Virus record (IMG/VR): IMGVR_UViG_2974764813_000001
Coordinates: 1 to 64,000 of that record
Length of the DNA: 64,000 nt
Strand: one strand, 5' to 3'
Origin: a virus
Lineage: Duplodnaviria > Caudoviricetes
The notes under the pieces were generated by a model. That model saw only the letters and a program-made list of their open reading frames with translations, had not been told where the DNA came from and searched no databases. Shown one piece after another: positions 26,179-54,327 of the stretch; positions within the stretch are counted from its first letter, which is position 1; the number at the start of each line of letters is the position of its first letter. A program made the translations under genes and the position numbers.

Positions 26179-26552
26179 CAGTCCGGTTGTGCTTCTCCTG
26201 CAAGGAACTGCGGGAGATCGTCTACGTCGACCCGGTGTATCGCGGGCACTGCTCGGCCTGCGTCACCGGCCCGACGTCTCAGGTCGGCTCGGTGGTCCGG
26301 GCCATGCAGTTCCTGAGCGCGACGGTCCCCTTCCAGGTCGGTGACCGCGTCGAAGCGCGTACCGGCGGCGAGCTGTACGACGGTGTGGGCACCGTGACCG
26401 AGGTCAGCTTCGACCTCGAGCACGGTGGCACGCCGGTCTACCCGACGTTCCACGTCGTCATCGACGAGCCCGCCGACGAGCACGCTCCCGCTGACGGCTG
26501 GTACACCGAGGTCTGCCTGGCCAAGCTCAGCCACCTGGAGCCGGTCGGGTGA
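26175..26552 (+). CDS. Zinc-finger plus SH3-like hypothetical protein
   Basis: CFSC...CSAC, FQVGDRVE; GTGA overlaps. Confidence 0.6.
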   Translation: MTVRLCFSCKELREIVYVDPVYRGHCSACVTGPTSQVGSVVRAMQFLSATVPFQVGDRVEARTGGELYDGVGTVTEVSFDLEHGGTPVYPTFHVVIDEPADEHAPADGWYTEVCLAKLSHLEPVG

Positions 26553-28942
26553 CCGCACCGGAGCCGAAGTTCCCCATCATCGACCGGCGCGGCCGTACCG
26601 CGTCGGGGCTGCAGGTCGGCAACCTCTCCGCGGAGATGAACCGTCTGCGCCAGGCGGGCGTGAGCCTGCCCAACAACCCGGTGCAGGCCCGCGTCACCGC
26701 CACGCAGATGCAGGAGTTGGCCGCCACGCCGGGCTCGCTGTCGGAGACCACCCGCAAGGTGGCCGCGCAGATGAACCGCTCCCGGATGGCCTCACTGCAG
26801 CGCACCGGAGCAGACACCCAGATCGCCATGCCCCGCATGCGCCAGCCGCTGGGCACCCTCGTCGACAAGGGCGTGCCGATTGACATCGGCAACCCCGACG
26901 AGCTCAAGAAGGCCCGCATGTGGGCGCGGATGTACTACGCCACCCACGACCTGGTGCCCCTGCTCATCGACATCTACGCGCGGTTCCCGCTGACCGGCCT
27001 GGAATTCCAGTCCGACGACTCGAAGATCGAGAAGTTCTTCAGCGAGATGTTCCTCAACGACCTCAACTACGAGGACTTCCTGCCCAACGCCCTGGGCCGG
27101 GAGTACTTCATCGCCGGTGAGGTCACCACCCTGGGCCACTTCGACGAGGAACTCGGCACCTGGGCCTCTGAGGAGGTCCTCGACCCCGACCGCCTGCGGG
27201 TGAGCCGCTCGCTGTTCGTCGACCAGGAGCGCGTGCAACTCATGGTCAAGGACATGGTCGACGCGCTGCGCAACCCGCCCCACACCGGCGGCCGACAGGA
27301 GACCCGCTCCGAGCAACTGGAGCGAACCTGGCAGCTGGAGCAGCTGCAGAAGTACCACCCCGAGATCATTCAGGCCGCCAACAACGACGACGGTCTCGAC
27401 ATCTCCGAGGGCCTGTGGAGCCGCATCGTCAACCGGGCCAACGCCTGGGACGTCTACGGCACCCCACCGCTGATGCGTTCGTTCCGCACCCTGCTGATGG
27501 AGGAGTCGCTCAACGCGGCCCAGGACGCCGTGGCCGACCGGCTGTACGCGCCGTTCATCGTGGCCACCCTCGGCATCGAGAACATGGGCGACGGCGAGCC
27601 GTGGATCCCCTCCATGGACGACCTGCAGGCGCTGCGCGACGACATGCAGGCCGCCCTGATGGGCGACTTCAAGCTCTACACCCACCACATGGGCCTCAAG
27701 ATCGAGAGCGTCTTCGGCCGCGAGTCGGTGCCGCGCTTCGACCAGGACTACGACCGCGTCGACATGAAGCTCATGCAGGCGTGGGGCATCGGCCAGGCCC
27801 TGATCCAGGGCGGCACCGCCGCGGCGGGCACCTACGCCTCCAGCGCGCTCAACCGCGAGGTGTGCGAACTGAACATGAAGGACTTCCAGCGCAAGGCCAC
27901 CGCGCACATCATCAAGCGCGCCGAGGTCATCGCCGAAGCCCAGCAGTTCTACGCCTACGAGAAGAAGGGCGAGCTGCGTATCCCGAAGAAGCGCAAGGTG
28001 CGCCGCTACAACGAGGACACCGGCGAAGTCGAGGTCGTCGAGGTGCCCGAACTGCTGACCCCCAAGGTCATCTTCCGCAGCCTCAACCTGCGCGACGAGC
28101 AGACCGAGCGCCAGTTCATCGCCGACCTCAAGACCGGCGGCGCCCCGGTGTCGGACAAGACCATGGCGCTGAACACCTCCATCGACTTCGACCTGGAGAT
28201 CCAGGCCCAGGCCGAGGAGGGCGTGTCCAAGATGGTCGCCCAGGCCGAGATGATGGCCAAGGCCAAGATGATCATCGACGAGAAGAACCGTCGCCTGCCG
28301 GTCGAGCAGCAGATGCCCTACCCGCCGGACATGATCGACTACCTCAACCAGACGCTGGTGCTGCGCCAGCAGCTGGCCGCGGTACAGATGGCCGAGGGTC
28401 AGGCCGACATGATGGAGCAGCAGAGCCAGGCGATGAGCCCGGCCGGACAGCTCGGCGTGCTGCCGATGGGCGGCATGCTCCCGCCCGGCGGCCCCAACGT
28501 CGCCCCTCCGATGGAGGAGGAGCCCGAGGCGCCGATGAACCGGGCCCGCCCGGAGATCTCCGACGACATGCGCGAAGGCATGCCGCGGGCGGCCAGCCGC
28601 AAGCGCAAGGGCAAGGACAGCAACGTCGAGCCGATCCGCAAGAAGTCGTGGCTGGAGAAGGGGCCGTCGAGCTACGGCCACAAGTTCACTGTCAACGACG
28701 AGCAGATCGAGCGTGCGGTGCGCCGCCGCGAAGTGCTCGCTCGCCACAACTCCCCGCTGGTCAGCGATCTGGTCGAGGATCCGGGCTTCTACCAGATGCT
28801 CAACATGGGCCAGTACGAGAGCCAGATCCGCGCCGACTGGCCGGAGATCCGCAACGGCGGGGCCAAGGACTCCGCTGACCTGCTGCGCGACATGGTCCAG
28901 CAATTCGAGGACATCACAGGGAAGACGGTGCAATGGGACTAG
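26549..28942 (+). CDS. Portal protein
   Basis: Size, position and motifs (YYATHDLVPLLIDIY, YF..GE, GTP.L.R.FR.L) resembling Bxz1-like myophage portals. Confidence 0.75.
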   Translation: MTAPEPKFPIIDRRGRTASGLQVGNLSAEMNRLRQAGVSLPNNPVQARVTATQMQELAATPGSLSETTRKVAAQMNRSRMASLQRTGADTQIAMPRMRQPLGTLVDKGVPIDIGNPDELKKARMWARMYYATHDLVPLLIDIYARFPLTGLEFQSDDSKIEKFFSEMFLNDLNYEDFLPNALGREYFIAGEVTTLGHFDEELGTWASEEVLDPDRLRVSRSLFVDQERVQLMVKDMVDALRNPPHTGGRQETRSEQLERTWQLEQLQKYHPEIIQAANNDDGLDISEGLWSRIVNRANAWDVYGTPPLMRSFRTLLMEESLNAAQDAVADRLYAPFIVATLGIENMGDGEPWIPSMDDLQALRDDMQAALMGDFKLYTHHMGLKIESVFGRESVPRFDQDYDRVDMKLMQAWGIGQALIQGGTAAAGTYASSALNREVCELNMKDFQRKATAHIIKRAEVIAEAQQFYAYEKKGELRIPKKRKVRRYNEDTGEVEVVEVPELLTPKVIFRSLNLRDEQTERQFIADLKTGGAPVSDKTMALNTSIDFDLEIQAQAEEGVSKMVAQAEMMAKAKMIIDEKNRRLPVEQQMPYPPDMIDYLNQTLVLRQQLAAVQMAEGQADMMEQQSQAMSPAGQLGVLPMGGMLPPGGPNVAPPMEEEPEAPMNRARPEISDDMREGMPRAASRKRKGKDSNVEPIRKKSWLEKGPSSYGHKFTVNDEQIERAVRRREVLARHNSPLVSDLVEDPGFYQMLNMGQYESQIRADWPEIRNGGAKDSADLLRDMVQQFEDITGKTVQWD

Positions 28943-36655: not shown

Positions 36656-37192
36656 ATGTTTCGCGTGACTCCGGCCAATCCCGCCCAGAAGCGGACCATT
36701 CGGCCCGTGTACGCCCAGCACCAGGCGACTGCCTACGCTGGCTTCCTCGATCCCGCCTGGGATCGATCCTTCGACATCGTGCCCGGCACCGTGATGTCGC
36801 GTAAGTCCGGCGAGGTCTTCGAACCCTTCACCGGCAAGCCCGGTCAGAAGCCGTTCGGCCTCTCGGCGCTGTTCGCGGCCCCGCGCCTGGGCATCGACGA
36901 GGTGACCGGCACTGGTGCCAACAACTTCACCGTCTGGGTGGGCGGCGAGCAGGCGGTCTTCGAGATCCTCAATCCGGGCTTCGACCTGGACGCGGACTGG
37001 AACGCCGCCAACGTCACCGACGGCAGCTTCAAGCTGCTGACGGCCACCGACACCGGTCTGCTGACGCCGACCGGTGTCGATCACGGCAACGCCGTGGCCG
37101 AGCTGATCGACGTCATCTCGACCGACGCCATCCAGATCCGCCTCAACCGCTATGACCTGACCTCCGCGGTCGCTCTGGCGGGCGGCAGCTAA
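36656..37192 (+). CDS. Capsid decoration / minor head protein
   Basis: Lies between protease and major capsid; AAGGAG SD. Confidence 0.6.
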   Translation: MFRVTPANPAQKRTIRPVYAQHQATAYAGFLDPAWDRSFDIVPGTVMSRKSGEVFEPFTGKPGQKPFGLSALFAAPRLGIDEVTGTGANNFTVWVGGEQAVFEILNPGFDLDADWNAANVTDGSFKLLTATDTGLLTPTGVDHGNAVAELIDVISTDAIQIRLNRYDLTSAVALAGGS

Positions 37193-37225
37193 GGCCAACG
37201 GGAACAGGACAAGGAGCAAACAACC

Positions 37226-38227
37226 ATGAATCTTCCCGCTGCCGTCGGCTCCGGCTTCGGACGCTACGCCACCCACTCGGACGAGTATGTGGCACAGGCA
37301 CAGAACATGCTGCAGCGCATGGGCCGCAAGCTCACCGCTGCCGAGAAGCAGACCAAGCTGGCGAACATCCTCCGGGATCGCCAGAACGGCCTCCTGCGCC
37401 TCGGCCAGTCGATGATCGGCCCGATCCAGCTGCAGCTGCGTTACCAGGGCATCCTGCGTAACGTCCTGCTCGAAGACGCCTGCACGCCAGGCGTTCCCAT
37501 CGAGTACGACGTGATGGACGATCTCGGCCAGGCGTACTACCTGCACGGCAACGAGGGTGAAGTCAAGATCACCCCGTTCGAAGGCAAGCGTATGCGCGTC
37601 GAGATGTTCCGGCTCGCGACCTTCCCGCAGATCAAGAAGGAAGATCTGTACTGGCTGCGGTCGAACATCGTCGAGTACGCCCAGGATCAGTCGAAGCAAG
37701 CGATCATGCGCCAAGAGGACTCGCGCCTGATCACCCTGCTCGAGGTCGCGGCCCAGCACTACCGGACCATCGACTCGACGGCGATCCCCGGCGTCGGCCC
37801 ACTGCCCAACGAGATCACCGTGGCCTCGAGCTACATCCAGCCCGGTGACCTCTACACGGCGTCGAGCTACACCGATAGCCGCCTGCTCGACTCGACCCGC
37901 CTGCTGTGCGGGCCCATCGAGTACCGGGACTTCTACCGGTGGGAGATCAACAACGTCGGTTGGGCCATGAAGGACTCCGTCGTGGCTGGCGAGAAGATCG
38001 TCCAGTTCGGCGAGTACCAGATCGGCAAGTCGGTCATCATCCCCAAGGGCACGCTCTACCTGACCCCGGACCCCGATTACCTCGGCGTCTTCCCGGTCAT
38101 GTACTCCCTCGATGTCGATGAGGACAACCAGGTCGAGCGGTTCGTCAAGGGCTGGGTCATGGACGAGCTCATCGGCATGGCCATCATCAACCCCCGCGGC
38201 ATCGTGATCATCCGCAAGGCTGCCTAA
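37226..38227 (+). CDS. Major capsid protein
   Basis: 333 aa with strong SD; C-terminal GWVMDELIGMAIINPRG typical of the HK97 fold; followed by a terminator. Confidence 0.85.
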   Translation: MNLPAAVGSGFGRYATHSDEYVAQAQNMLQRMGRKLTAAEKQTKLANILRDRQNGLLRLGQSMIGPIQLQLRYQGILRNVLLEDACTPGVPIEYDVMDDLGQAYYLHGNEGEVKITPFEGKRMRVEMFRLATFPQIKKEDLYWLRSNIVEYAQDQSKQAIMRQEDSRLITLLEVAAQHYRTIDSTAIPGVGPLPNEITVASSYIQPGDLYTASSYTDSRLLDSTRLLCGPIEYRDFYRWEINNVGWAMKDSVVAGEKIVQFGEYQIGKSVIIPKGTLYLTPDPDYLGVFPVMYSLDVDEDNQVERFVKGWVMDELIGMAIINPRGIVIIRKAA

Positions 38228-38599: not shown

Positions 38600-41500
38600 G
38601 TGAAACGTATTATCACCCACCGCGAGCAGGCCGAGGCGATGCAGTGGTGGCAGCAGGGCGCCATCATGCGCACCGCTGCCAGGGACTACTCGAAGATGAC
38701 CCTCTTGCAGGCCATCAACGAGGACGGCGTCCCCGACCTCTGGCTCGACGCCCATCCCGAATGGGTCGAGCTGATCAAGATGCCGGGAAACAAGGCGTTC
38801 TGGAAGCAGGAGCTCAGCCAAAACGGCGACTGGGACCTGGTCCAGGACTACCTGGAGATCAAGGCCGAAGACGGCGACCAGAACGCCTTCGACGTCCTCG
38901 ACGACCACCGCAAAAACAGCCTGATCGGCCAAGGCGCGGTGCCGATGAACTGGCACTCCGGTGACGACGACGACTACGAACTGGATCCCGGCGACGTCGA
39001 TTTCGACGACGACTTCGAGGAGCACCCGGAGCCCGACGAGTCCTCCGTGGGCTCGCTGCTGCCCGACATCTCCGGCATGAGCCTGCGGGAGTTGCTGGAC
39101 TCCGGTGTCAACAGCGCCTCTGTCCACGAGTGGCTCGACAAGCACCCCAACATCAATGCCGTGCTCAAGGACCCCAGCGATCCGGCGCACCAGATCATCC
39201 TCGACGAGGTCGGCAAGAAGCTCGCTCCGCACCTGGACCCCTCCGACTACCCGGAAGTGCACCAGGCCGTCGGCACCGACACGAAGGGTGTCCCCAGCCA
39301 CGAAGACATGCAGCAGCTCGCTGAGGGGCTCTACGGCGGCCCGCACGGCGACCACAGCGACATCATCAACGCCTGGAAGCAGTGGAGTCCCCAGGACTGG
39401 AAGGACAACCTCGAGGTCGCGGCCACCGGTCAGGCCGGACCGCACTGGAAGGCGCTGGCCGACAAGATGCTCGGCGACAACAAGACGCTGGGCCAGAAGC
39501 TCTCCGACGTGTTCGGCGGCCAGGGCATCAATGCCGAGGCGTTCGACTCCATGTCGCCCGAAGGGCAGAAGAACATGCTCGCCGAGTACCTGGGCAGCGC
39601 CACCGGCGAGAACGAGCACCCCGACGTCAAAAAGCTCTTCGACGAGCACTTCGGCGACCCCAAGGGCCACCCCCTCAAGCCCCAGAGCGACGAGGAGTGG
39701 AACGACTTCATGCAGACGATGTTCCCCGGCCTGGGCGAGGGTGCGCTGCAGAACAGCCTCAACAGCTGGAAGTCGCTGAGCGATAAGCAGTGGGAGGACA
39801 TCGCCGACGGCACCCACCCCGCGGGCTCCGGCGTGGGATTCAAGAACTGGAAGAAGCTCAAGGACTACCCGGACAAGCCCTCCACGGGGCTCAACGACGC
39901 CGTCGACGAACTGCTCAACGAACTGTCCGGCGACCCGTGGAACAGCGACGTCAAGCCCAGCACGCCCAGTAAGCCCACCAACCCGTGGGACAACCCGCCC
40001 AAGTCTGGCGACTCCCAGAGCGTGCTCGCCCCGATCAAGTCTCCGGGAGGCAAACCCCTCTACGGCGAGCCTGGCCCGTCCTTCGGTGTCAGCTACAACC
40101 CCGGTGACCGTCAGAGCCGCCCGATGAGTCTGGACTCGCCGATGTTCAACGAGGACAACCGGCCGATGATGCCCGACGGCCGCTGGTACTTCTCGCCCAG
40201 CGACCACAACCCGCTGTCGCAGAGCGATGCGCGCCCCGAGGTCCGCTGGGACCGCAACGACTTCGAGGAAGACGACGTGCTGCCGGGCATGCCGACCGAG
40301 AACCGGTCGGTGAAGCTCTACCGCGGCGAGCCGATCAACCTCGATCACCCCGGCGCCGCGCACATCAAGAAGATGCTCTACGGCGAGACGCCCGACCCCG
40401 ACACCCCGATGCTGCCGGGCACGGAGCAGCTGATGGGCGCCCCGGCCTACGGCAAGGGCTCACCGCGCGAAGGACTGCCCGACGCGGACTGGGCCACCAA
40501 GTACCTGCACCAGACGGTCCCCGGCCTCAACAAGGACGAGGAGTTCTGGACCGACGACCTGATCAAGGACCTGCCCGACGACAACCCGGTGGTCCAGGCG
40601 TGGCGCCGCGGCCACGACGCCGACAGCGACCCGTTCCGCAACCCCGAGCTGGGCAAGGCGCTGCTCGACCACTGGGAGAAGACCCGCGGCAAGGACTACC
40701 CCGGCCCCGATCTGCAGGGCCTGGGACGGCACTGGACGCTCGATCCCGGCCTGGCCAGCAACTTCGGCGGCGCCAACAGCCGCTACGTCCTGCCGACGCG
40801 GTTCGTCTCGGAGTGGGACGGCAGCGGTGAGGACCCGTACCGCTCCAACACCGGCGGCGACTACCCGCACGAGAAGGAGATCACCAAGATCCCCGGCTCG
40901 CCCATGAAGATCGTCGATGTCCAGGTCAAGCACCCCGACACCTACGAATGGGTCTCGGCCTGGCCCAAGGGGCACACCGAGACCCGCTACTCGTCGCGCG
41001 GCGGGATCACCGGCCACCGCGAACAGGCCGAGGCGCTCGCGCAGCTGGAGTACCTCTACCGCACCGGGGCGTTGTCCGACAGCGAGTACTACGCACGGGT
41101 GCGCCAGGTGATGGACCAGGTGGACAACGCCCGCCGGTCGGGCCAGACCACCAACAAGCTGCACGCCGGTCCGATGGCGGGCTACTCGCTGCCGCGCTAC
41201 ATCCAGCAGCAGCAGCTGCTCAACGACGCCTGGAAGGAGCTGGGGGAGAACGTGCCCCGCAACCGCCACGGGCTGATCGTCGGCGGGCTGCCCGGCTCGG
41301 GCAAATCCACCGTGCTCGACAACCACGCCGAGATCGAAGGCGTCGGCCCGGTCAAGGGCAACTTCCTGCGCATCGACCCGGACTACTTCAAGGAGCAGAT
41401 GGGCAAGCGGGGGATGACCCCGCAGATCGAGGGGCTCTCACCGCTGGAGACCGCGGCGCTGATCCACGACGAGTCCACCGACCTGGCCCACCGGCTGGCC

Positions 41501-41866
41501 CACCGCGCCTACCAGGAGGGCACCAACGTCGCCTGGGACGGCACGCTGCGGTATCCGGGCACCGACAAGATCGAGGACTTCAAGAAGCACGGGTACACCC
41601 CGCACGGCATCTTCGTCGACCTGCCGCTGGACGCCTCGGTGCAACGGGCCCAGGAGCGTTACCGTCGGGGGCATGAGGGGTATGTCGCCGGGACCAACCC
41701 GCTCGGCGGCCGCCTGGTGCCCGAGGACTACATCCGCAGCAGCGCCAGCCCGCAGCCGGGGTTCAACTCGATCAACCGCAAGAACTTCGAGGACATGCGC
41801 GCGCACTTCGCCACTCCGGCACAGGTCTGGGACAGCACGGACCTGCCCCCGCGGCGACTTGAGTAA
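38600..41866 (+). CDS. Multidomain effector: leader, internal repeats, ART-like domain, second leader, zeta-toxin-like P-loop kinase
   Basis: KLYRG...RHWT...EKEI (ART-like, about 40300-40990); GGLPGSGKST, RIDPDYFK, NVAWDGT, R..GGRLVP (zeta-like, about 41000-41866). Confidence 0.75.
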   Translation: MKRIITHREQAEAMQWWQQGAIMRTAARDYSKMTLLQAINEDGVPDLWLDAHPEWVELIKMPGNKAFWKQELSQNGDWDLVQDYLEIKAEDGDQNAFDVLDDHRKNSLIGQGAVPMNWHSGDDDDYELDPGDVDFDDDFEEHPEPDESSVGSLLPDISGMSLRELLDSGVNSASVHEWLDKHPNINAVLKDPSDPAHQIILDEVGKKLAPHLDPSDYPEVHQAVGTDTKGVPSHEDMQQLAEGLYGGPHGDHSDIINAWKQWSPQDWKDNLEVAATGQAGPHWKALADKMLGDNKTLGQKLSDVFGGQGINAEAFDSMSPEGQKNMLAEYLGSATGENEHPDVKKLFDEHFGDPKGHPLKPQSDEEWNDFMQTMFPGLGEGALQNSLNSWKSLSDKQWEDIADGTHPAGSGVGFKNWKKLKDYPDKPSTGLNDAVDELLNELSGDPWNSDVKPSTPSKPTNPWDNPPKSGDSQSVLAPIKSPGGKPLYGEPGPSFGVSYNPGDRQSRPMSLDSPMFNEDNRPMMPDGRWYFSPSDHNPLSQSDARPEVRWDRNDFEEDDVLPGMPTENRSVKLYRGEPINLDHPGAAHIKKMLYGETPDPDTPMLPGTEQLMGAPAYGKGSPREGLPDADWATKYLHQTVPGLNKDEEFWTDDLIKDLPDDNPVVQAWRRGHDADSDPFRNPELGKALLDHWEKTRGKDYPGPDLQGLGRHWTLDPGLASNFGGANSRYVLPTRFVSEWDGSGEDPYRSNTGGDYPHEKEITKIPGSPMKIVDVQVKHPDTYEWVSAWPKGHTETRYSSRGGITGHREQAEALAQLEYLYRTGALSDSEYYARVRQVMDQVDNARRSGQTTNKLHAGPMAGYSLPRYIQQQQLLNDAWKELGENVPRNRHGLIVGGLPGSGKSTVLDNHAEIEGVGPVKGNFLRIDPDYFKEQMGKRGMTPQIEGLSPLETAALIHDESTDLAHRLAHRAYQEGTNVAWDGTLRYPGTDKIEDFKKHGYTPHGIFVDLPLDASVQRAQERYRRGHEGYVAGTNPLGGRLVPEDYIRSSASPQPGFNSINRKNFEDMRAHFATPAQVWDSTDLPPRRLE

Positions 41867-41919
41867 GAAATGGTATAGTTTATGTATAGAACTATTGACA
41901 CGGCAGGGAAGGGGTGATC

Positions 41920-42186
41920 ATGGAGCGACCTCAGACCTACCGTGAGGCGGCCGACTGGTTCGTCGAGGGCAAGCTGACGTTCGACCAGTTGCACGACGCG
42001 ATGGGGTACCTGCCCCCGCCGGAGACACGCCGAGAGCCGCAGTCGCTGGCCGACATCTACGACATCGCCGACGAACCTCGCGGGCCCAACTCGACATTCT
42101 GGATCGCCGTGCTCGAGACCTGCGGAAAGATCACCCTCGACCAACTCGTCGAGCTCCTGGAGACCGTTGCTGAAATCCACCGGTGA
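41920..42186 (+). CDS. Small putative antitoxin/immunity protein
   Basis: Directly after the zeta domain, with its own extended -10 TGGTATAGT; two GK[LI]T.DQL repeats. Confidence 0.55.
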   Translation: MERPQTYREAADWFVEGKLTFDQLHDAMGYLPPPETRREPQSLADIYDIADEPRGPNSTFWIAVLETCGKITLDQLVELLETVAEIHR

Positions 42187-42280
42187 TGCGGATTCTAGAC
42201 CATTTCTAGGTTTGCACTGTTGCCCTTCTGGGAATTTCCACTTACAGTAATCAGGTAAGCTCCGGGAAGGGGGTGAAGGT

Positions 42281-42487
42281 ATGCACAGCTACCTGGTAAC
42301 CATGCTCGACCGAATGACAGGCAGCGAATGCCGCGTGGTGGTGCAGGCCGAGTGCCCCCACGATATGCAGGAGTTTGTGGATCGTCTTGCGCGCGAAGGC
42401 AAACTGCCCATCAGCAGCCCGGTGGTCGTCGACATCGACGACCGCGCCGCCGCGCACGTCCCCTTGGTGAACCCAGCCAAGCTCTAA
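42281..42487 (+). CDS. Small hypothetical protein
   Basis: ORF flanked by operator-like palindromes and a terminator. Confidence 0.5.
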   Translation: MHSYLVTMLDRMTGSECRVVVQAECPHDMQEFVDRLAREGKLPISSPVVVDIDDRAAAHVPLVNPAKL

Positions 42488-42504
42488 TTCCACTTTCGGT
42501 GATG

Positions 42505-42533
42505 ACCCCAGAGCGCTGACGCTCTGGGGTTTT
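42505..42533 (+). terminator. Intrinsic terminator
   Basis: ACCCCAGAGCG-CTGA-CGCTCTGGGGT followed by TTT. Confidence 0.75.
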
Positions 42534-42622
42534 CGCTGTTCGGTGCCTGCGCCCCTGTGCGGAAGACCCGTGCCATCCCGGAATAGATGAGTACGTGTTT
42601 TGTCCGACCGCAAGGAGACACC

Positions 42623-43249
42623 ATGACCACCACGACTGCTACGCCGACACCGCGCACCATCGCCGAACTGCGCAAGCACGACGGGCCGATCTACATGGCT
42701 AACAACACCGCCAACCGGGTGCACTGCCACGAGCAGCTCGGTGATCACCGCGTCGACTTCGAGCTCGACCCGGTCGGCGGCGAGGACTCGATCCAGATGG
42801 TGCCCAAGATGGCCCTGGAGGTCCGCGGCATCCAGAAGATGTGGCGCAACGGCGACCTGACCGTGAGCACCGACGAGTCGATGGAAGAGCAGATCACCCT
42901 GCTCATCGACCGCAACATCAAGACCCCGCAGGACCGCCTCAACGGCATCATGGCCGCCAGCGGCGACGGGGCCACCCTGCAGGTCGAGGGGTCGGCCAAC
43001 GGCAAGAACCTCACCGAGAAGGCGTGCCTGGAGTGCGGCGCCTACGACCCGAAGACCGGTGTGCTGCTGCGCGGCCGTGTGGTGATGCGGGTCTCCGACG
43101 TCGAAGAGGGTGTCGCGCCGCTGTGCGCGACCCACCAGCACCTGTCCACGCAGTGGGCCGGTCGCCAGGTCCTCGCCGACACCGACGAGACCCCGCACTG
43201 GGAGTTCGACAAGGTCTCGCTCACCGCCCCGGTGCGCGAACAGGGCTGA
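42623..43249 (+). CDS. Conserved hypothetical late protein
   Basis: AAGGAG SD; CLEC...C..H. Confidence 0.65.
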   Translation: MTTTTATPTPRTIAELRKHDGPIYMANNTANRVHCHEQLGDHRVDFELDPVGGEDSIQMVPKMALEVRGIQKMWRNGDLTVSTDESMEEQITLLIDRNIKTPQDRLNGIMAASGDGATLQVEGSANGKNLTEKACLECGAYDPKTGVLLRGRVVMRVSDVEEGVAPLCATHQHLSTQWAGRQVLADTDETPHWEFDKVSLTAPVREQG

Positions 43250-43268
43250 TCCACAAGGAGGAAAGAAC

Positions 43269-43430
43269 ATGGCAGATACCCCAGTCTGGGCAGGCCAGGT
43301 GCCGCACCTGATCACCGGTGCCTACCAGAAGAAGCAGTTCCGCTCCGGCCTCGCCGGAGGCATTCAGGAGACGGTCTTCGACGCGCTGGCCTACCCGCCG
43401 GAGTCGGGCGTCGAGGCCACTGAGGCCTGA
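43269..43430 (+). CDS. Small virion-region protein (paralog of 44550..44840)
   Basis: AGGAGG SD; shared VFDALAYPPESG motif. Confidence 0.6.
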   Translation: MADTPVWAGQVPHLITGAYQKKQFRSGLAGGIQETVFDALAYPPESGVEATEA

Positions 43431-43437
43431 CCCTGCC

Positions 43438-43629
43438 ATGTTCACCGCAGCGGAACTGAGCTGGTACAAGGCGGGCGCACTGGTTCGCCAGCCCCGCCTT
43501 GTCCCAGGCGAACCCAATCTCTCTTCCATCGCCCATGCCATGGCCAGCCCGCCGATGCCGAACCCCGACTTCATCGTGGACACCGGCAGCGACCGCATCG
43601 ACGGGGAGATCGACGGAGGGACACCGTAA
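43438..43629 (+). CDS. Small hypothetical protein
   Basis: Ends IDGGTP, abutting the fiber gene. Confidence 0.45.
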   Translation: MFTAAELSWYKAGALVRQPRLVPGEPNLSSIAHAMASPPMPNPDFIVDTGSDRIDGEIDGGTP

Positions 43630-44460
43630 ATGCCCGAACTGAGGCGAATCAGGTTTCGTCGAGGCACCCCAGCAGAATGGGCTGACGCCGATCCGGTGCT
43701 TCCGGCCGGATCTCTGAATGTAGAGATCGACGGCGTCAACAGCGTGGCCCGCATCAAGGTGGGTATCGGGGCTCGCTGGACGGAGACGCCCTTTGTCGGC
43801 TCTGACAGCGAGGGCGGCGGCACGGTCACTGTCGCCGATGTCGTCGGCCTGACCGACGCCCTGAGCGAAAAAGCCGACGTCACTCACGACCACAGCGGGG
43901 TGTACGCCCCGACGAGTCACGACCACAGCGGGGTGTACGCCCCCACCAGCCACACTCACGACACTTCGCAGGTGGACGGGCTGGAGACCTTGCTCGGCGA
44001 GAAGGTGGACACCTCCACCACGGTGGCCGCCGGGACCGGCTTGACCGGCGGTGGGACGCTGGATGCCAACCGGACCTTGGCACTGAGCTCGGCCTCGATT
44101 GCCTCGCTGGCCAAAGCCGACACTGCCGTGCAGCCCGAGGCCCTGACCGGACTCTCCCCGAACCTGGTGATCCGGCCCGAGAAGTCCGACAACACGGTGT
44201 TGATCGTGGCCGACGCCAACTCGTTCAGCAAAGTCAACACCACGCCAGGGACGGCCACCATCGTCGTGCCGCTGAACTCCGATGAGCCCATCCCTATCGG
44301 CGCGTCGGTCTACCTCATGGTCTCCGGCGCGAACGACATGAGCATCGGAGCCGACGACGGCGTCACGGTGCGCGCGGTGGATGACGTGATGGACATTTCG
44401 GGGAACCACAGGTTGGCCCACCTGCTCAAGGTCGGCACCGACGAGTGGATCTTGCAGTGA
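43630..44460 (+). CDS. Fiber-like protein with Mtd/hyaluronidase-type N-terminus
   Basis: RIRFRRGTPAEW...PVL..G; HDHSGVYAP repeats; AGTGLTGGG. Confidence 0.7.
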   Translation: MPELRRIRFRRGTPAEWADADPVLPAGSLNVEIDGVNSVARIKVGIGARWTETPFVGSDSEGGGTVTVADVVGLTDALSEKADVTHDHSGVYAPTSHDHSGVYAPTSHTHDTSQVDGLETLLGEKVDTSTTVAAGTGLTGGGTLDANRTLALSSASIASLAKADTAVQPEALTGLSPNLVIRPEKSDNTVLIVADANSFSKVNTTPGTATIVVPLNSDEPIPIGASVYLMVSGANDMSIGADDGVTVRAVDDVMDISGNHRLAHLLKVGTDEWILQ

Positions 44461-44549
44461 TCCCTTGACCTGACTCACCTGTGCTCGCACGCCTCCCGCC
44501 CGGTAATAGGCGAAGGGATTTGCAGCACCCCAGCAAGGAGAAGAGTGAT

Positions 44550-44840
44550 ATGACCGCAGTGCCCGAAGCCGTCCGGCTGGCCTACCAGACTCGCCACTAC
44601 AACGCGGGCATCCCGGTCAAGCCCGACAACAGCGTGTTCGACGCGCTGGCCTACCCGCCGGAGAGCGGCCTGGAAGCCCAGGAAGCCGCACTCGCGGCGG
44701 CCCAGGAAGTCGGCATCATCGCACCGGACCCGGCCGCCCTCAAGGGTGCGGTCGCCCACCGCGACGTCATCAAGCAGTTCTACGACTCGGCCAGCATCCT
44801 GCGTCCCGTCGCAGACGACAACACCGACGAAAACGGCTAG
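44550..44840 (+). CDS. Small virion-region protein
   Basis: AAGGAG SD; VFDALAYPPESG. Confidence 0.6.
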   Translation: MTAVPEAVRLAYQTRHYNAGIPVKPDNSVFDALAYPPESGLEAQEAALAAAQEVGIIAPDPAALKGAVAHRDVIKQFYDSASILRPVADDNTDENG

Positions 44841-44886
44841 AGCCCGCTTCGATTTCGCCGTTCTCCACTGACACGAGAGGACAGAG

Positions 44887-46491
44887 GTGGCTACTGCCTG
44901 GCCGGATGGCTATGACGACTTCGGCGTACCTTCCCTGCCGGAAGAGACACCTCTGTCCTCTGCGGGGGACAGTGCCCGCAACCACCCCGAACTGCTGCGC
45001 GACGTCGGCGATGCCGTCGAGGCCCTGCAGCGCGGTGTGGCGCGCAAGATTCACGATCACTCCGGTGACCCTGACGACATCGCCAAGGGCGACAAGCTCA
45101 AGCAGGCCAACACCCACGAGGACGCCGACACCGACTCCTCACCCACGGCGCTGCACCACACCCTGGGCTTCGGTGCGCACCAGGCCATGCCGGGCAACCA
45201 CGTGCCCAACTACGCCGACCTGCCGGGCGCGCCGTTCCGTATCTGCACCTCCACCACCCGGCCCGGAGCACCGTTCCGCGGCCAGGTGATCTACGAGACC
45301 GACACCAAGTGCTTCCGGCAGTGGGAGCTGTTCAACAACAACGCGGTGATCACCGGGCTCAACTCGCAGATCAACTTCGATACCGTCGATGCCACTACCA
45401 TCGGTGGCGGCGGCTGGGACATCACCATCGCCAGCGGGGACACCACCCACGGCATCCCGGCCACCCCCGACGGCACGCTGCGCTGGATCGACGGCGGCAA
45501 CCAGACCAACCGCTTCTGGGCGCGACGCACCAACCCGCTGGACGCGGAGACCGAGACCGACGACCAGATCATCACCTGGAAGACCGGCGACACCGTCATC
45601 GAATCGGAACTGCCGCTGACCGACGGCGCCACCAACGACGTCTACTTCCGGGTCAGCGAGGACGAGCAGAGCTACATCAAGCTGCGCGTCGGCGACCAGT
45701 ACATCAAGGCGTTCTACACGACCTCCGGCCGGGAGAACGAGAAGGCTCTCGGCGAGCTGTCCAACATCGAGACCCAGTTGTCCAACGCGACGTGGTCCGG
45801 CGAGATGACCGACCGCACCCTCTCGCTGTACTGCGGCGGGGAGTTCATGGGCTCGATCAAGGACACCAAGGCCGTCACCGCCAAAGGCGCCGACAACCGC
45901 GGCTGGATGATCGGCATGCAGGCCGGTGCCCGCGGCCTGGGCCAGACCACCCCGGCCAACATCGACTGGGTCCGCATCCAGGACCGGCGCTACTTCACCT
46001 CGGTCAACCGCTGGAGCCTGCTGCCGCTGGGCCGTGTCCCGGTGTGCCGCCTGCGCCAGTCCAAGAACCAGCAGCTCATGCGCACCGGCACCATCCTGGA
46101 GTTCGCCGAGGAGGTCGAGGACACCTTCGGCTTCTTCGACAAGGCGGTGTCGCAGACCGACGTCGTGATCACCGAGCCCGGCACCTACGACATCACCGCG
46201 ACGCTGCAGTGGGATCCGCAGAGGGTGCCCGACCAGGCCCACGCGCTGGTCATGGTCAACGGCCAGGAGACCGAGATCAAGGACTCGAAGTTCCTGCGCG
46301 GCAACGGTGCGCAGCCGGGCTTCTCCCAGACCCTGGCGATCACCGGCACCCTGCCTCTGGTGGCCGGTGACGTCATCCAGGTCAAGGCCCGCTTCGAGGC
46401 GTCCGGCGGCCTGCTCAACCAGATCTTCTCCTACTTCGACGCCGCGTCGAAGGTCAACTCTCGTCTCGAGATCACATTCCGGGGGCCGTGA
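44887..46491 (+). CDS. Minor tail/fiber protein (lectin-like and C1q-like domains)
   Basis: HHTLG...QAMPGNH, CTSTTRP..PF.GQ.IYETDT fiber motifs; beta-rich C-terminus. Confidence 0.65.
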   Translation: MATAWPDGYDDFGVPSLPEETPLSSAGDSARNHPELLRDVGDAVEALQRGVARKIHDHSGDPDDIAKGDKLKQANTHEDADTDSSPTALHHTLGFGAHQAMPGNHVPNYADLPGAPFRICTSTTRPGAPFRGQVIYETDTKCFRQWELFNNNAVITGLNSQINFDTVDATTIGGGGWDITIASGDTTHGIPATPDGTLRWIDGGNQTNRFWARRTNPLDAETETDDQIITWKTGDTVIESELPLTDGATNDVYFRVSEDEQSYIKLRVGDQYIKAFYTTSGRENEKALGELSNIETQLSNATWSGEMTDRTLSLYCGGEFMGSIKDTKAVTAKGADNRGWMIGMQAGARGLGQTTPANIDWVRIQDRRYFTSVNRWSLLPLGRVPVCRLRQSKNQQLMRTGTILEFAEEVEDTFGFFDKAVSQTDVVITEPGTYDITATLQWDPQRVPDQAHALVMVNGQETEIKDSKFLRGNGAQPGFSQTLAITGTLPLVAGDVIQVKARFEASGGLLNQIFSYFDAASKVNSRLEITFRGP

Positions 46492-47483
46492 TGACCAGCG
46501 AACCGTCGGGCATCATGATTAGCAGCCCGAAGATCCGCGACCAGGCACTGGTGCGCAAGTTCGTCTCCCAGGGCGGCCGCGGCTACATCGCCTTGGACAT
46601 CCGCACCCCCGAGGGGTCGGTGGACCCCGACGAGGGCAGCCTGCAGCTCAAGGTGTGGTTCAACGACGTCACCGCCCAGGTCCCGGTCTCCGATGACCCG
46701 CGCGGCGTGCTGGCGCTGGAGGTGTCCCACGACGAACTGCACCGCGAGGACACCGGCAAGTACGACTACGAGATCGGTCCCGCCCTGACCAGCCAGCGCG
46801 GGGTGTTCACCGTCGAGTGGCTCTACAAGGTCGGCGGCACCGAGTTCAGCTTCACCGACCACCTGCAGGTGCTCAGCCAGATGCCGCTGTACGACACTCT
46901 CTCGACGGCCGAGCGGCTCACCGTCGAGCAGGTGTCCTGGATGCTCGGCGATCTGTTTGACTCCACCGAGGGCGGCCCGTATCTCATCGAGCAGTTCCAG
47001 ACCCACTTCGACTACGAGCGCATCGCCCAGCTCGCCCAGATCGCCGTCACCCGGCTCAACACCACCGGCTTCCCGGTGACCTACTGGGCCTTCGGCGGCG
47101 ACGGCGGCGGCAACGTGGTGCCCAAGGAGTTCGCCGGGCTGCACGTACTGGCCACCTACTACGAGGTGGTGCGCCACCTGATCCGCTCGTACGTGGAGAT
47201 CCCCGCGCGCGTCGGCGCCAACATCACCTTCCTGGACCGTCGCGACTACATGCAGCGCTGGCAGTCCATCCTGGCCACCGAACTGCCGGAGTGGCAGAAG
47301 ATGGTCAAGACCGCCAAGCGCTCGCTGCTCGGCCTGGGCCGCGGCGCGCTGCTGGTCTCCGGCGGCATCTACGGCAGCGGCGCGACCGGTGTCTTCCAGT
47401 ACGGCATGTACGTCAGCCACACCCGCGCGTTCCGGTTCTATCCGGCGGCCCCGGCCGTGTCCTGGGGGTCGATTGGGCGATGA
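46488..47483 (+). CDS. Head-to-tail adaptor
   Basis: Position; D.FDS..GGP.L and DRRDY..RW motifs. Confidence 0.6.
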   Translation: MMTSEPSGIMISSPKIRDQALVRKFVSQGGRGYIALDIRTPEGSVDPDEGSLQLKVWFNDVTAQVPVSDDPRGVLALEVSHDELHREDTGKYDYEIGPALTSQRGVFTVEWLYKVGGTEFSFTDHLQVLSQMPLYDTLSTAERLTVEQVSWMLGDLFDSTEGGPYLIEQFQTHFDYERIAQLAQIAVTRLNTTGFPVTYWAFGGDGGGNVVPKEFAGLHVLATYYEVVRHLIRSYVEIPARVGANITFLDRRDYMQRWQSILATELPEWQKMVKTAKRSLLGLGRGALLVSGGIYGSGATGVFQYGMYVSHTRAFRFYPAAPAVSWGSIGR

Positions 47484-48109
47484 GCGTCGCGATCCTCAAG
47501 CAGGCACAGCAGTTCTCGTGGCGAACCTCATCGTTCCTCTGGGATGACCCGCGCGGCTACCTCGCGGCCAAGGAGTGGCTCGACAACGGCTTCGCATACC
47601 ACGCCGACGACTTCCGCGCGGGCGGGGAGAGTGCGCGCCAGGGCAGCCCGCACCCGTGGCCGGAGGGCTTCAACGAGGCCCGGCTGCTGCGCACCCCTGA
47701 TGGCCGCCGCGCCATCGGTTCGGAGATCTACCAGCGGCTCACCCAGGCGCAGCCGACGAAGTACGAGCTGTGGCGCGGGGTCACCGGCGACCTGCCCTAC
47801 ACCGAGGGCCAGACCGTCAGCATGCCGCTGTCGTCGTTCGCCATCGACAAGGCCAAGGCCAGCGAGTTCGCCCGCGAGACGCCGAAGGACACCGGCGGCT
47901 ACCTGCTGCGCATGAGCCCCGGATCGCAGTCCTACAAGCTCATCAACCACGACAACCCCGGCGAACTGCGCGGCTGGGATCCCGCAGGCGAGCACATCTC
48001 CATGGGCGACTTCCGGGTGAACCGCATCCACCAGCCCCGCAACCCCGGCGACCTGCCCATCGCCGACATCACCCACCTGGGCCTGGGCGCACCGGAGGTG
48101 AGGCCATGA
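47480..48109 (+). CDS. Leader plus ADP-ribosyltransferase-like domain (R-S-E type)
   Basis: ELWRG, MPLSSFA, GEHISMGDFRV; N-terminal MSVAILKQAQQFSWRTS. Confidence 0.6.
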   Translation: MSVAILKQAQQFSWRTSSFLWDDPRGYLAAKEWLDNGFAYHADDFRAGGESARQGSPHPWPEGFNEARLLRTPDGRRAIGSEIYQRLTQAQPTKYELWRGVTGDLPYTEGQTVSMPLSSFAIDKAKASEFARETPKDTGGYLLRMSPGSQSYKLINHDNPGELRGWDPAGEHISMGDFRVNRIHQPRNPGDLPIADITHLGLGAPEVRP

Positions 48110-48486
48110 CCGCGATCCTCAAGCAAGCCGAGCAGTATTCCTGGCGGGTGGCGATGCCTTGGTATCACGTCAGTCCTCATGATCTCCCTGATGCCACCAG
48201 GCTGACTCCTGGTGGAGGGGAGTCAGCTTTTGGCGACGAGGTTTACCAGGATGAATTCAGCGATCATCCGAATCACGTTTGGATGTGGAATGACCTAAAC
48301 AGCGCCGTTCGGTTCCTGCCTGAGATCGGCGCCGAGAAGCGTCCTAACGGTGACTGGGAGCATGGCCACGTCTACGAGGTGGATCCAGAAGACCCCAGGC
48401 CTTGGTACAGCGGCCAGCACGGTTACGTGACTCCATCTGCGAAGATCATTCGTCAAGTCCCACAAGGCGAATGGGGGCAGCAGTGA
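48106..48486 (+). CDS. Leader plus Arr-like ADP-ribosyltransferase-fold domain
   Basis: WYHVS...L.PG, HVWM, GHVYEVDP; N-terminal MTAILKQAEQYSWRVA; atypical codon usage after the leader. Confidence 0.55.
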   Translation: MTAILKQAEQYSWRVAMPWYHVSPHDLPDATRLTPGGGESAFGDEVYQDEFSDHPNHVWMWNDLNSAVRFLPEIGAEKRPNGDWEHGHVYEVDPEDPRPWYSGQHGYVTPSAKIIRQVPQGEWGQQ

Positions 48487-49397
48487 GCATCAAGCTGCCC
48501 GAAGACTTCGGCGTCAACCAGCTGCGCAAGGACGTTCGCGACTCCTTGCAGACCGCGGGGGAGCAGTGCATCGTGCTGGCGATGCGCCACCCTGTCGACG
48601 ACGACGACGCCGAGAAGTGCCCGGTCTGCGACGACGACATCTACAACGACGGCGAGGCCGACTGCGAGGTCTGCTACGGCACCCGCTACGCCCACCCGGT
48701 GCGCGAGGCCGCCAAGGTGTGGGCGGTGTTCTCCGACCAGACGAACGACGAGACCTACACCAAGCAGGGCGTGTTCCAGTCCGACGTGCGTGAGATCCAG
48801 ACCGAGGCGTTCCCGCGGCTGATGGAGCACGACTACGTCGTGCGCGTGCGCCGCTGGACCCCCGACGGCCGCGCCGCCGAGATCGAAGGCTTCTACACCG
48901 TCGACAAGGTCATCCCGAACTCGGTGCGCACCGGCAACCGCTTCGGCCAGGCCAGCTGGGACATCGTCGGCCAGAAGGCCACCGTGCGCGAGGTTCCGCG
49001 CACCTCGCTGGCGATCACGAAGTACCCGGTGCTGGGCAAGACCTTCAACGCGGGCCTGATCGAGCCGGTCGGCACCATGGCCACCCCGGCACCGGCACCG
49101 CCGGACACCAAGGTCGTCTACGTCCCGGTCATCTCGCCCGGCGCGAGCACCCCCGACCCAGACGACTCGCCCCCGCTGGTGCAGATGCCGCCCGGCACCT
49201 ACTGGCGGCGGGTGTTCTTCCACACCCAGAGCGCTCCCGCGGCCACCTGGACCATCGTGCACCCCTTCGACTACGACCCCTCGGTCACGCTCTTCGTCGG
49301 CGGCGAAGAAGCCGACACCGACGTCGAGTACCCCAACGACCACACCGTGGTGCTGACCTTCGCCGAACCCCAGGCCGGTGTCGCACAGCTCATCTGA
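48483..49397 (+). CDS. Head completion/stopper protein
   Basis: CPVC...CEVCYGT motif typical of myophage neck proteins; WTIVH C-terminal repeat. Confidence 0.6.
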   Translation: MSIKLPEDFGVNQLRKDVRDSLQTAGEQCIVLAMRHPVDDDDAEKCPVCDDDIYNDGEADCEVCYGTRYAHPVREAAKVWAVFSDQTNDETYTKQGVFQSDVREIQTEAFPRLMEHDYVVRVRRWTPDGRAAEIEGFYTVDKVIPNSVRTGNRFGQASWDIVGQKATVREVPRTSLAITKYPVLGKTFNAGLIEPVGTMATPAPAPPDTKVVYVPVISPGASTPDPDDSPPLVQMPPGTYWRRVFFHTQSAPAATWTIVHPFDYDPSVTLFVGGEEADTDVEYPNDHTVVLTFAEPQAGVAQLI

Positions 49398-53061: not shown

Positions 53062-53535
53062 GTGCCCATCGGCAAAATCCGCGTTGCTGGGTCGGGGTAT
53101 ACAACCCTGCTGTTCCAGGGGCAGCGCTTGGCCTACCTCCAGGTCATCCAGGACACGCCGCCCACCCCGGTGGCCCAGGCGCAGGCCGTCCAATCCCTGG
53201 ATGAGCCGGTACCGCAGGAGATCGTCACCGCGGGTGCGGTCGGCGTCGGCACGTTGCGAATGACCTTCTACGAGAAGTGGATTTCGCCTGCGTGGGCGTC
53301 GCTGCCGGGCCTGGAGGGGACCAACAACCTCCTCGAGGTGCTCCAGCGCCAGCTCACCCTGGGGTCGATCACGATGCAGAAGATCGTGCGTCACCCCGGC
53401 ACCGGCCAGATGCGCGCCCGCGTCTACCACGACGTCGTCATCACCGACATCGACGAGGGCGAGAACATCAACATCGGCACGATGACGCTGCCGAAGACCA
53501 TCACCGCCCAGTATTGCTACACCACGCCGGTGTAA
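53062..53535 (+). CDS. Tail tube protein
   Basis: 157 aa directly after the sheath. Confidence 0.75.
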   Translation: MPIGKIRVAGSGYTTLLFQGQRLAYLQVIQDTPPTPVAQAQAVQSLDEPVPQEIVTAGAVGVGTLRMTFYEKWISPAWASLPGLEGTNNLLEVLQRQLTLGSITMQKIVRHPGTGQMRARVYHDVVITDIDEGENINIGTMTLPKTITAQYCYTTPV

Positions 53536-53590: not shown

Positions 53591-53764
53591 ATGGCACCAC
53601 GCATTGCTCGGCAGGCAGAGACCTTCGGCCTGCACGAGGTCGAGGAGGCCCGCCAGCGGACCGCGGCGAGCATCGCGGACCCGGCCGAGATCGCTGACCT
53701 GCTCAAGGGTCCGCGCATCCAGGCCGGGCTTCTGCAGGTGCGCGACGAAGGGGACATCGAGTGA
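53591..53764 (+). CDS. Small hypothetical protein
   Basis: AAGGAG SD. Confidence 0.5.
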   Translation: MAPRIARQAETFGLHEVEEARQRTAASIADPAEIADLLKGPRIQAGLLQVRDEGDIE

Positions 53765-54327
53765 CGAGCGTCCCCGAGCCGAACCTGGGCCCGCCGCCGA
53801 CGCTGGCGACACCGGGCATCCAGCCCCCGACGCAATTCGTTCCCGCACAACCGTTCTCCGAGGACGAGTTCGACCCGATGGCCGTGGCCCCGCCGCCGGA
53901 GCCCGAAGAGGTCGAGGAGGAAGAGGTCACCGAGCTCGACGACGACGAGCTGCGGCTGTTCGCCTCGCTGCTCACCGTCGGCCAGATCTTCAAGACGATC
54001 TCGGTGATGGGCCACAAGGTCAAGATCCAAAGCCTGCGCGTGGCAGACGATTTGCGCATCGGGCTGTACTGCCGCCCGCACGAGGGCTCGAAGATGGAGC
54101 AGCGGGCCTACCAGCTCGCTGTGTGCGCCGCGGGCATCGTCGAGGTCAACGGCCAGCCGCTGGTGAATTCGTTCCTGCCGATGACCGACGACGAGCGGTT
54201 CGACAAGCAGGCCGAGATCCTCAAGAACGCCTATCCGGTCATGCTCACCCGCGTCCACCGGGCGATCATGGCGCTGGACCAGGAGTTCGTCGAACTGGCA
54301 GACAAACTGGGAAAACTCGAAGGCTAG
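53761..54327 (+). CDS. Tail assembly chaperone (short form)
   Basis: Between tube and tape measure; slippery GGGAAAA near its end. Confidence 0.75.
   Translation: MTSVPEPNLGPPPTLATPGIQPPTQFVPAQPFSEDEFDPMAVAPPPEPEEVEEEEVTELDDDELRLFASLLTVGQIFKTISVMGHKVKIQSLRVADDLRIGLYCRPHEGSKMEQRAYQLAVCAAGIVEVNGQPLVNSFLPMTDDERFDKQAEILKNAYPVMLTRVHRAIMALDQEFVELADKLGKLEG

Follow-up and report, generated by a model that had tools for sequence, protein, structure and literature searches.

We analysed a window of 64,000 nt (bases 1-64000) of the virus record IMGVR_UViG_2974764813_000001, a genome of 136,361 bp with 67.4% G+C and an estimated completeness of 97%, and found that genes of its virion module open with copies of one short peptide, here called the leader, joined to unrelated enzyme-like cargos. 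Judged by its genes, the virus is a myovirus and kin of the cluster C mycobacteriophages: at the protein level its virion module is that of cluster C (Bixzunavirus, Myrnavirus) and of Gordonia and Rhodococcus myoviruses, and at the DNA level it has only short matches to known phages, namely Rhodococcus phage Finch and Mycobacterium phages Phabba and ScoobyDoobyDoo. All genes discussed here lie on the + strand. One leader heads a protein of 1088 amino acids (aa), gp1088, encoded behind the major capsid gene and holding a second, internal copy, and two more head proteins of 209 and 126 aa encoded in the gap between two conserved virion-module genes, which we call the cassette site (Table 1).

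The leader is 16-26 residues long and reads M-R-[IV]-x-[RKT]-[QA]-[AR]-E-Q-[FY], followed by 1-13 variable residues and a closing [WY]-R-x-[A/S/G], in which the [WY] is sometimes another residue. An earlier note, made from the letters of the window, had pointed to four related peptides that match in pairs at the DNA level and each end in R-x-[ASG]; all four are present, every copy has that ending, and the DNA matches are real (21 of 24 bases identical over H-R-E-Q-A-E-A in one pair). Its count was too low, missing a leader at 53591 behind the tail-tube gene and another at 126357, at the start of a 2030-aa polyprotein outside the window. A first profile hidden Markov model (HMM) of 14 positions, built from seven leaders and run against the six-frame translation of the whole 136-kb genome and of five loci, gave the four window copies 12.2-24.8 bits, compared with 7.1 bits for the best match in reversed sequence, and brought up these two extra candidates at threshold, each at the very start of an open reading frame (ORF). 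Both are confirmed by their relatives: the ORF at 53591 matches the N-terminal 50 positions of the family phrog_2933, whose Phabba member starts with a like peptide. The final HMM of 25 positions comes from a 23-sequence alignment in which the six sites of this genome are training members; it scores those six at 17.7-28.5 bits and everything else at 7.5 bits or less, with 7.3 bits in the reversed control. Chance as the source of the likeness was rejected on these scores.

Table 1. Leaders, cargos and neighbouring virion genes discussed in the text (positions are those of the record).
Feature	Position	Strand	Remarks
Leader 1, long type (gp1088 residues 1-26)	38600-38677	+	28.4 bits (25-position HMM)
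Acidic, Trp-rich spacer (gp1088 residues 27-559)	38678-40276	+	No recognised domain; like the spacers between modules of the 2030-aa polyprotein
Type A ADP-ribosyltransferase-like module (gp1088 residues 560-800)	40277-40999	+	Y-R-G, G-R-H-W-T, E-K-E; phrog_2579
Internal leader copy (gp1088 residues 802-826)	41003-41077	+	Directly before the zeta domain
Zeta-toxin-like kinase with P-loop	41078-41866	+	PF06414, residues 892-1046, E 4e-17, 62.7 bits (cut-off 22.3)
gp1088, whole ORF	38600-41866	+	Followed by fibre-like and neck/tail genes
Leader 3, short type (residues 1-17 of 209-aa protein)	47480-47530	+	
209-aa protein, whole ORF	47480-48109	+	
ADP-ribosyltransferase cargo of 209-aa protein	47531-48109	+	R99, S118-S119, E171
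Leader 4, short type (residues 1-16 of 126-aa protein)	48106-48153	+	28.5 bits
126-aa protein, whole ORF	48106-48486	+	
Arr-like cargo of 126-aa protein	48154-48486	+	
57-aa ORF after tail-tube gene	53591-53764	+	Residues 1-27 are a long-type leader ending R-T-A-A-S; 26.3 bits
2030-aa polyprotein ORF	126357-132449 (L006:4358-10450)		Outside the window; first residues are the sixth leader
Lysin A; intein-bearing large terminase	Left end of window		
Portal	26549-28942	+	
LysM head protein, 1064 aa	30830-34024	+	PF01476, E 9e-13
Prohead protease fused to scaffold-like region, 852 aa	34080-36638	+	phrog_18299 head maturation protease, E 1e-19, residues 69-216; phrog_2774
Cement protein and major capsid protein	36656-38227	+	
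Major capsid protein	37226-38227	+	phrog_2522, E 2e-126
phrog_2791 gene	46488-47483	+	Conserved virion-module gene; left flank of cassette site
phrog_2806 gene	48483-49397	+	Conserved virion-module gene; right flank of cassette site; synteny in Phabba, Skog, G001, Finch, E3
Sheath gene	At 51526	+	
Tube gene	At 53062	+	

Could such a shared stretch be a relic of duplication or recombination, kept as a homology anchor for cassette exchange and without function as a peptide? The two adjacent small genes share 29 of 39 leader bases and diverge straight after, and the gap that they occupy holds different cassettes in different phages, both as such a relic would have it. However, across phages with no other DNA similarity the conserved leader residues are kept while their codons differ freely, which places selection on the peptide and not on the DNA. 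Moreover, cargos at four different genomic sites have retained the leader, which occurs in phages of both Mycobacterium and Gordonia, and its start-proximal position and closing [WY]-R-x-A persist although the middle varies in length. We therefore regard the relic as very improbable and are nearly certain that the leader is a real, selected and portable module. In the structure model of the 209-aa protein the leader (residues 1-21) is disordered, with a predicted local distance difference test (pLDDT) score of about 30, and lies outside the fold. The 57-aa ORF at 53591 overlaps, through GTGA, a 188-aa ORF within 53591-54327, and members of phrog_2933 have about 250-280 aa; it may be a truncated or split form of that family, although the downstream ORF has no resemblance to the Phabba phrog_2933 homologue.

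The gene of gp1088 begins with a GTG codon 6-7 nt downstream of the ribosome-binding site GGGGAGGAGG and encodes, amid virion genes, two effector domains in one polypeptide: an ADP-ribosyltransferase (ART)-like module that we call type A, and a zeta-toxin-like kinase. The type A family shares the motifs Y-R-G, R-H-W-[ST] and E-x-E, with R575, R-H-W at 710-712 and E760 invariant in the alignment, and is labelled 'ParB C-terminal domain' in phage records (phrog_2579). The ART-like modules have no Pfam match even at E 10, and the type A model (pLDDT 64.5) has no Foldseek match at E 0.001 or better (best E 0.4); its top 28 VIA matches are all ART toxins at weak scores (Z 4.8 or less), and its Atlas neighbours, taken as leads, all belong to ART families. 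This evidence, weak but consistent, points to a cholera/TreX-like ADP-ribosyltransferase in residues 560-800.

The internal leader of gp1088 is bracketed by the R-Y-S-S in which the type A module closes (residues 796-799) and by its own terminal R-T-G-A. Residues 813-1070 align, from residue 4 of the partner onwards, with the product of a stand-alone leader-zeta gene in the uncultured 143.6-kb relative G001 (35% identity, E 1e-37), and in G001 the leader-ART and leader-zeta genes are separate neighbours. We therefore read gp1088 as a fusion of two such genes, which explains why it carries a leader in its interior. Behind the zeta domain, two small orphan ORFs of 90 and 68 aa (41914-42487) have no Pfam or PHROG match, and BLASTP shows neither to resemble the C-terminal extension of the G001 zeta protein; a likeness to that extension seen by eye in the ORF at 41914-42186 was dropped on this result.

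The 2030-aa polyprotein takes the same architecture further. Behind its leader it has a kinase-like domain, placed N-terminally and weakly matching PI3_PI4_kinase, a stretch that resembles a zinc ribbon, and a short module with Y-R-G. It also contains three full type A modules, with spacers that are very acidic and rich in Trp, and R-T-A-A sites, between them. Its gene lies downstream of that for a 1160-aa virion structural protein (phrog_2824) and upstream of genes for small membrane proteins and of DUF7257 minor-tail-like genes.

At the cassette site (46488-49397), the stop codon of the phrog_2791 gene overlaps the start of the gene for the 209-aa protein, and stop/start overlaps recur within the site. 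Comparing it across six loci (L001, L005, L026, L017, L002 and L008), we found two leader genes here and in G001 and one each in Phabba (gp212) and Gordonia phage Skog (gp173); Finch, E3, RedWattleHog and the Bixzunaviruses have no leader gene there. The leader of Phabba gp212 is intermediate between the two types of the window and is joined to a different ART-like module. In G001 the site holds one leader with an NMNAT-like nucleotidyltransferase and another with a type A module and a ParB nuclease domain. One fixed position between conserved neck/tail genes thus accommodates different leader-cargo cassettes in different phages, as the earlier proposal of exchangeable cargos would predict. 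Just upstream of the site, the Bixzunaviruses have a leaderless GNAT gene.

The two cargos at this site in the window differ in how firmly they can be assigned. The model of the 209-aa protein, made from a remote-homologue alignment (pLDDT 75.5), finds ExoS, Vis, C3larvin, iota Ia and CDTa by Foldseek (E 6e-6, probability 1.0), a strong fold match that indicates a C3/ExoS-like ADP-ribosyltransferase of the R-S-E clade; R99, S118-S119 and E171 are invariant in remote homologues, and Ala stands at the first position of the usual [Q/E]-x-E. The 126-aa protein is a lead towards an Arr (rifampin ADP-ribosyltransferase)-like enzyme: a language-model and structure look-up gave an Atlas score of 0.96, 178 shared features and a TM value of 0.64 to Arr, and the three best PDB matches of its family profile are Arr proteins (including Arr-2 and 2hw2), but at E 0.4-0.6, and it has no Pfam match (Arr is PF12120, with the motifs Y-H-G-T and Y-x-V-E-P); in statistical terms both the look-up and the profile ranking fall short of firm. 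Neither protein had a match by tblastn against 50,697 phage records, and among 5.8 billion proteins a word-indexed search recovered nothing beyond the two queries. Only an exhaustive HMMER search reached remote relatives of the 209-aa protein, placing its cargo domain in large multi-domain proteins with Phage_Mu_F, VG15, a glutamine-deamidase toxin, DUF7178, zeta toxin or GNAT. The claim of three ART-like folds and a zeta-like kinase therefore stands, in graded form: strong for the 209-aa protein, a Pfam match for the zeta domain, weak for type A and a lead for the Arr-like cargo.

Mapping the leader beyond this genome, we found that in nine related phages, including Phabba, Myrna, McWolfish, Tonenili and Skog, its profile marks the N terminus of some 20 more genes, nearly all of which adjoin virion genes. 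This is what had been foreseen for an HMM search of related actinophages, that is, many N-terminal matches on unrelated enzymes beside virion genes. The 23 aligned leaders stand on at least 10 cargo types, those in the relatives including GNAT, NMNAT-like, ParB, DUF7178 and kinase-like domains. Many cargos are NAD-linked (several types of ADP-ribosyltransferase and the NMNAT-like enzyme), and others are zeta kinase, GNAT and ParB. Leaders also head McWolfish gp103 and gp104, three Tonenili genes, a 520-aa protein of Myrna, Phabba gp229 and the Phabba phrog_2933 homologue, and in Skog both gp173, with GNAT and ART-like domains, and a 516-aa protein. DUF7178 is carried by several leader genes of cluster C and Gordonia phages; as the cargo of McWolfish gp103 and Phabba gp229, it also occurs in one polymorphic-toxin-like protein bearing the 209-aa cargo domain.

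The uncultured relatives extend this range. G001 has five leader genes: beside the two at its cassette site, three consecutive ones encode a 94-aa protein, a type A module and the zeta kinase. G002 has one, and the 150-kb contig G003 encodes, side by side, two polyproteins of about 1300 residues that open with a leader and contain GNAT, zinc-finger and three Arr-like modules, the last of the kind seen in the 126-aa protein. The DNA pattern of the short leader occurs at only three places in IMG/VR, in G003 and otherwise only in G001, and at that stringency the short type is rare. Three genomic contexts recur: immediately behind the capsid gene, between neck/tail genes whose stop and start codons overlap, and after a virion structural protein. 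Where the capsid gene was located, in McWolfish and Phabba, the leader genes gp103/gp104 and gp229 lie up to a few kb downstream of it. The public annotation of the leader genes that we looked up reads hypothetical protein or 'ParB C-terminal domain'. A profile match in RedWattleHog falls within the repeat of a tail fibre and does not represent a leader.

The closing motif of the leader recurs in proteins of the head. Genome-wide, R-[TY]-[AS]-[AS] occurs 17 times compared with 6.2 expected, and 12 of the 17 sites lie in head or leader-bearing proteins, among them the 2030-aa polyprotein (5 versus 0.17 expected) and gp1088 (2 versus 0.06). The site is most often R-T-A-A. In the polyprotein it divides the leader, kinase-like domain and ART modules; six of seven type A modules have it 8-12 residues past their last strand, and it bounds the modules of the G003 polyproteins as well. 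The LysM head protein has four R-T-A sites (0.33 expected), one of which, L-R-T-A-G-R near its C terminus, is kept in three phages. Likewise, R-[VT]-A-[AS] near the C terminus of the scaffold/protease is kept in the window, Phabba and Finch. The capsid protein has G-x-R-[YFV]-[AG] at residues 11-15, in the same column in Phabba, Finch, G001 and McWolfish, which may be the end of a short propeptide. A slightly wider motif in Phabba, McWolfish and Finch gave 18 sites in head proteins, compared with 5.6 expected, and 4 in tail proteins, compared with 4.0. The earlier note had said that the motif punctuates the head proteins, and the counts bear this out in part. In sum, the pattern is consistent with a prohead-protease site. 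The sites cut by herpesvirus assemblin, whose fold is common to phage prohead proteases, read (V/L)-x-A followed by S, with the cut between the last two, and if the cut here falls after the small residue, the site would resemble them.

How should these observations be read together? We favour, at a rough probability of 55%, the explanation that the leader is a capsid-targeting propeptide like that of T4 but differs from it in sequence and in predicted cut site. Its more general part, that the leader directs proteins into the virion, seems to us slightly more probable still, and its removal at R-x-[A/S/G] by the prohead protease an even bet. The leader would then be a portable N-terminal propeptide on unrelated effector enzymes and polyproteins of the late virion operons of these actinophage myoviruses. 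During assembly it would bind the prohead core, enclosing the cargo in the capsid; the prohead protease would cut at R-x-[A/S/G], the exact bond being a prediction, and would both take off the leader and separate the modules of gp1088 and of the 2030-aa polyprotein. The freed enzymes (ADP-ribosyltransferases, zeta kinase, Arr-like; in relatives also GNAT, NMNAT-like and ParB) would be ejected alongside the DNA and act in the next host, and new cargos would be gained by exchange downstream of the leader. The odds seem equally balanced for the broader proposal of a portable virion-loading signal with its own protease code (Arg-x-Ala/Ser/Gly), common to cluster C and its Gordonia and uncultured relatives, that loads enzyme cocktails cut from polyproteins of up to 2030 residues. 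Much of this had been proposed in the earlier note, whose in-silico predictions all came out as stated, while head loading, leader removal and ejection draw on analogy and motif statistics.

The analogy is with the capsid-targeting sequence (CTS) of phage T4. There, the first ten residues of IPIII suffice for loading into the prohead core, gp21 removes the CTS of IPI-III and Alt at a motif common to capsid and core proteins, and the ADP-ribosyltransferase Alt is trimmed after loading and later ejected; the CTS has been proposed as a route by which T4-like phages gain new packaged proteins (PMC9026906). Like the CTS, the leader is a short N-terminal peptide on unrelated proteins encoded with head genes, with an ADP-ribosyltransferase among its cargos, and it ends in a motif, here the predicted cut site, that also marks capsid and core proteins. 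In contrast to the CTS of about 10 residues, it has 16-26 and another sequence; it closes in R-x-[A/S/G] instead of [L/I]-x-E, and the protease is not a match to the gp21 family and is fused to a scaffold-like region. The polyprotein cargos of up to 2030 aa, the internal leader copy and the actinobacterial hosts also differ from T4, and the system here is known from genes alone. It may thus work like that of T4 without membership in the T4 CTS family.

Several points weigh against this favoured explanation. The motif was sharpened after the data had been viewed, R, T and A are common in the proteome, and the per-protein counts are small; the R-x-A-S after a type A module could be part of the domain and not a cut site. 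The protease has no characterised close relative to indicate its specificity, its domain matching only phrog_18299, with no match in Pfam and nothing meaningful in a PDB sequence search. In Finch and E3 the leader profile has no match, and the motif is nonetheless kept in their head proteins. A literature search on cluster C phages found no virion proteome or N-terminal data and no paper on this leader.

Part of this would also fit the main alternative, that the leader is a shared handle and not a packaging signal, serving a common chaperone or inhibitor, timing or localisation, with enzymes that act in the producing cell like T4 ModA/ModB and an R-x-A that is a structural or linker feature. 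Peptide-level conservation proves a function without saying which. The leader genes of G001 at 15-17.7 kb adjoin an NlpC/P60-like gene and a small membrane protein, near lysis functions, and Myrna gp78, which has these ART modules joined through R-S-A-S, shows no clear leader and lies near tRNA genes, outside the virion module. Nevertheless, we judge a shared handle unlikely: almost all leader genes lie in late virion operons, often translationally coupled to structural genes, the closing motif keeps its alignment column in the capsid, scaffold and LysM head proteins, cargos of these families are elsewhere joined to the head domains MuF/VG15, and no candidate partner gene travels with the leader. 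Genes of the gp78 type (Myrna gp78, L018:2159-3592, and homologues in about 200 cluster C phages) encode two different ART-like modules and are annotated 'ParB-like nuclease domain / ParB C-terminal domain', a label that is probably misleading.

A further alternative accepts the virion and moves the destination: the leader would target the tail, neck or tail lumen instead of the capsid interior, and any processing would not be by the prohead protease. The cassette site has a neck/tail-module gene on either side and precedes the sheath gene, and in the window, Phabba and Finch the genes of the phrog_2933 leader family stand between those for the tail tube and for the tail assembly chaperones; the destination of the leader therefore need not be the head interior. 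However, the leader genes with the strongest conservation (gp1088, Phabba gp229, McWolfish gp103/104) lie behind the capsid gene, R-T-A-[AS] is enriched in head and not in tail proteins, and polyproteins of 1300-2030 residues suit a capsid better than a tail lumen. On balance a tail or neck destination appears improbable, and loading into the head remains the explanation that we prefer.

If head loading is right, the system also invites comparison with other phage proteins packaged with the genome. In giant phages of the phiKZ type (phiKZ, SPN3US), ejection or inner-body propeptides are cut at [A/S/G]-x-E, as summarised in the abstracts (PMC5694885, PMC10052503). As far as those accounts go, the phiKZ group resembles what is proposed here in that a single prohead protease processes many proteins of the head interior at a short motif, and these are then packaged and ejected; it differs in the motif and in its much larger capsids. 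No single shared leader family is known to us for phiKZ-like phages. Multi-effector 'polyvalent' phage proteins have likewise been predicted to be capsid-packaged, and the lone GNAT gp113 of mycobacteriophage Alice, from the same gene neighbourhood, was called probably capsid-deployed (Iyer et al. 2017, PMC5512222). The leader proteins resemble them in combining several effector domains (ART, GNAT, zeta-like kinase, ParB) per polypeptide encoded with virion genes, and the 2030-aa protein, with its kinase-like domain and three or four ART-like modules, is polyvalent in that sense. Unlike here, the text on polyvalent proteins describes neither a common N-terminal leader (the word 'leader' is absent) nor an R-x-A junction motif, and it proposes processing by built-in peptidase domains (PMC5512222), none of which was found in the proteins here.

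The MuF polymorphic toxins of temperate phages (Jamet et al. 2017, PMC5576092) share with the leader proteins variable C-terminal toxin domains on a constant N-terminal part, which in the MuF toxins is head-associated, and fusions with MuF/VG15 exist for both the 209-aa cargo domain and DUF7178. Here, by contrast, the constant part is a peptide of 16-26 residues, the phages are large myoviruses of lytic type, and no immunity gene was identified. PF04233 (Phage_Mu_F) has no match in this 97%-complete genome or in the leader proteins, so the earlier description of the system as MuF-independent is correct. The antirestriction proteins of phage P1 (DarA, DarB, DdrB and others) are packaged in the head and proteolytically processed (PMC9024508; PMC5512222). 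The proposed system would resemble them in that large effectors enter the capsid ahead of the DNA and part of them undergo cleavage, and differs in having no sequence relation to them and a different loading hierarchy. For P1, no shared short leader is known to us.

The principle of a short tag, a protease site and interchangeable cargo is thus already known from T4; what is new is the specific leader family, unannotated in the public records looked at, its predicted Arg-x-Ala cleavage code and its reach into culturable mycobacteriophages. If the favoured explanation is true, the leader would be the first sequence-defined packaging tag for mycobacterial phages and would give the first sequence rule for head-carried proteins of a large culturable group (Bxz1/Myrna-type, more than 200 genomes). 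The T4 strategy would then have arisen with another tag and cleavage code in an unrelated head-assembly lineage, and the cargos (ADP-ribosyltransferases, zeta kinase, Arr-like, GNAT and NMNAT-like enzymes) would form a set of injected enzymes that are candidates for a part in host takeover or counter-defence in actinobacteria. As in T4, the tag would be usable for packaging chosen proteins into phage heads. The hypothesis is open to direct test by mass spectrometry on virions of phages held in collections.

Some further features of the genome lie apart from the leader. The large terminase subunit (1651-4911) has an intein-like insert with Hint and LAGLIDADG matches at residues ~300-580. A fibre-like protein (43630-44460) contains a tandem 12-residue His/Ser-rich unit and has weak Mtd_N and phage-tail-repeat matches. 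DUF7257 is present as a pair of paralogues, one in the neck/tail block (44887-46491; E 1.5e-66) and one near the right end of the genome (133441-134754; E 2.7e-57).

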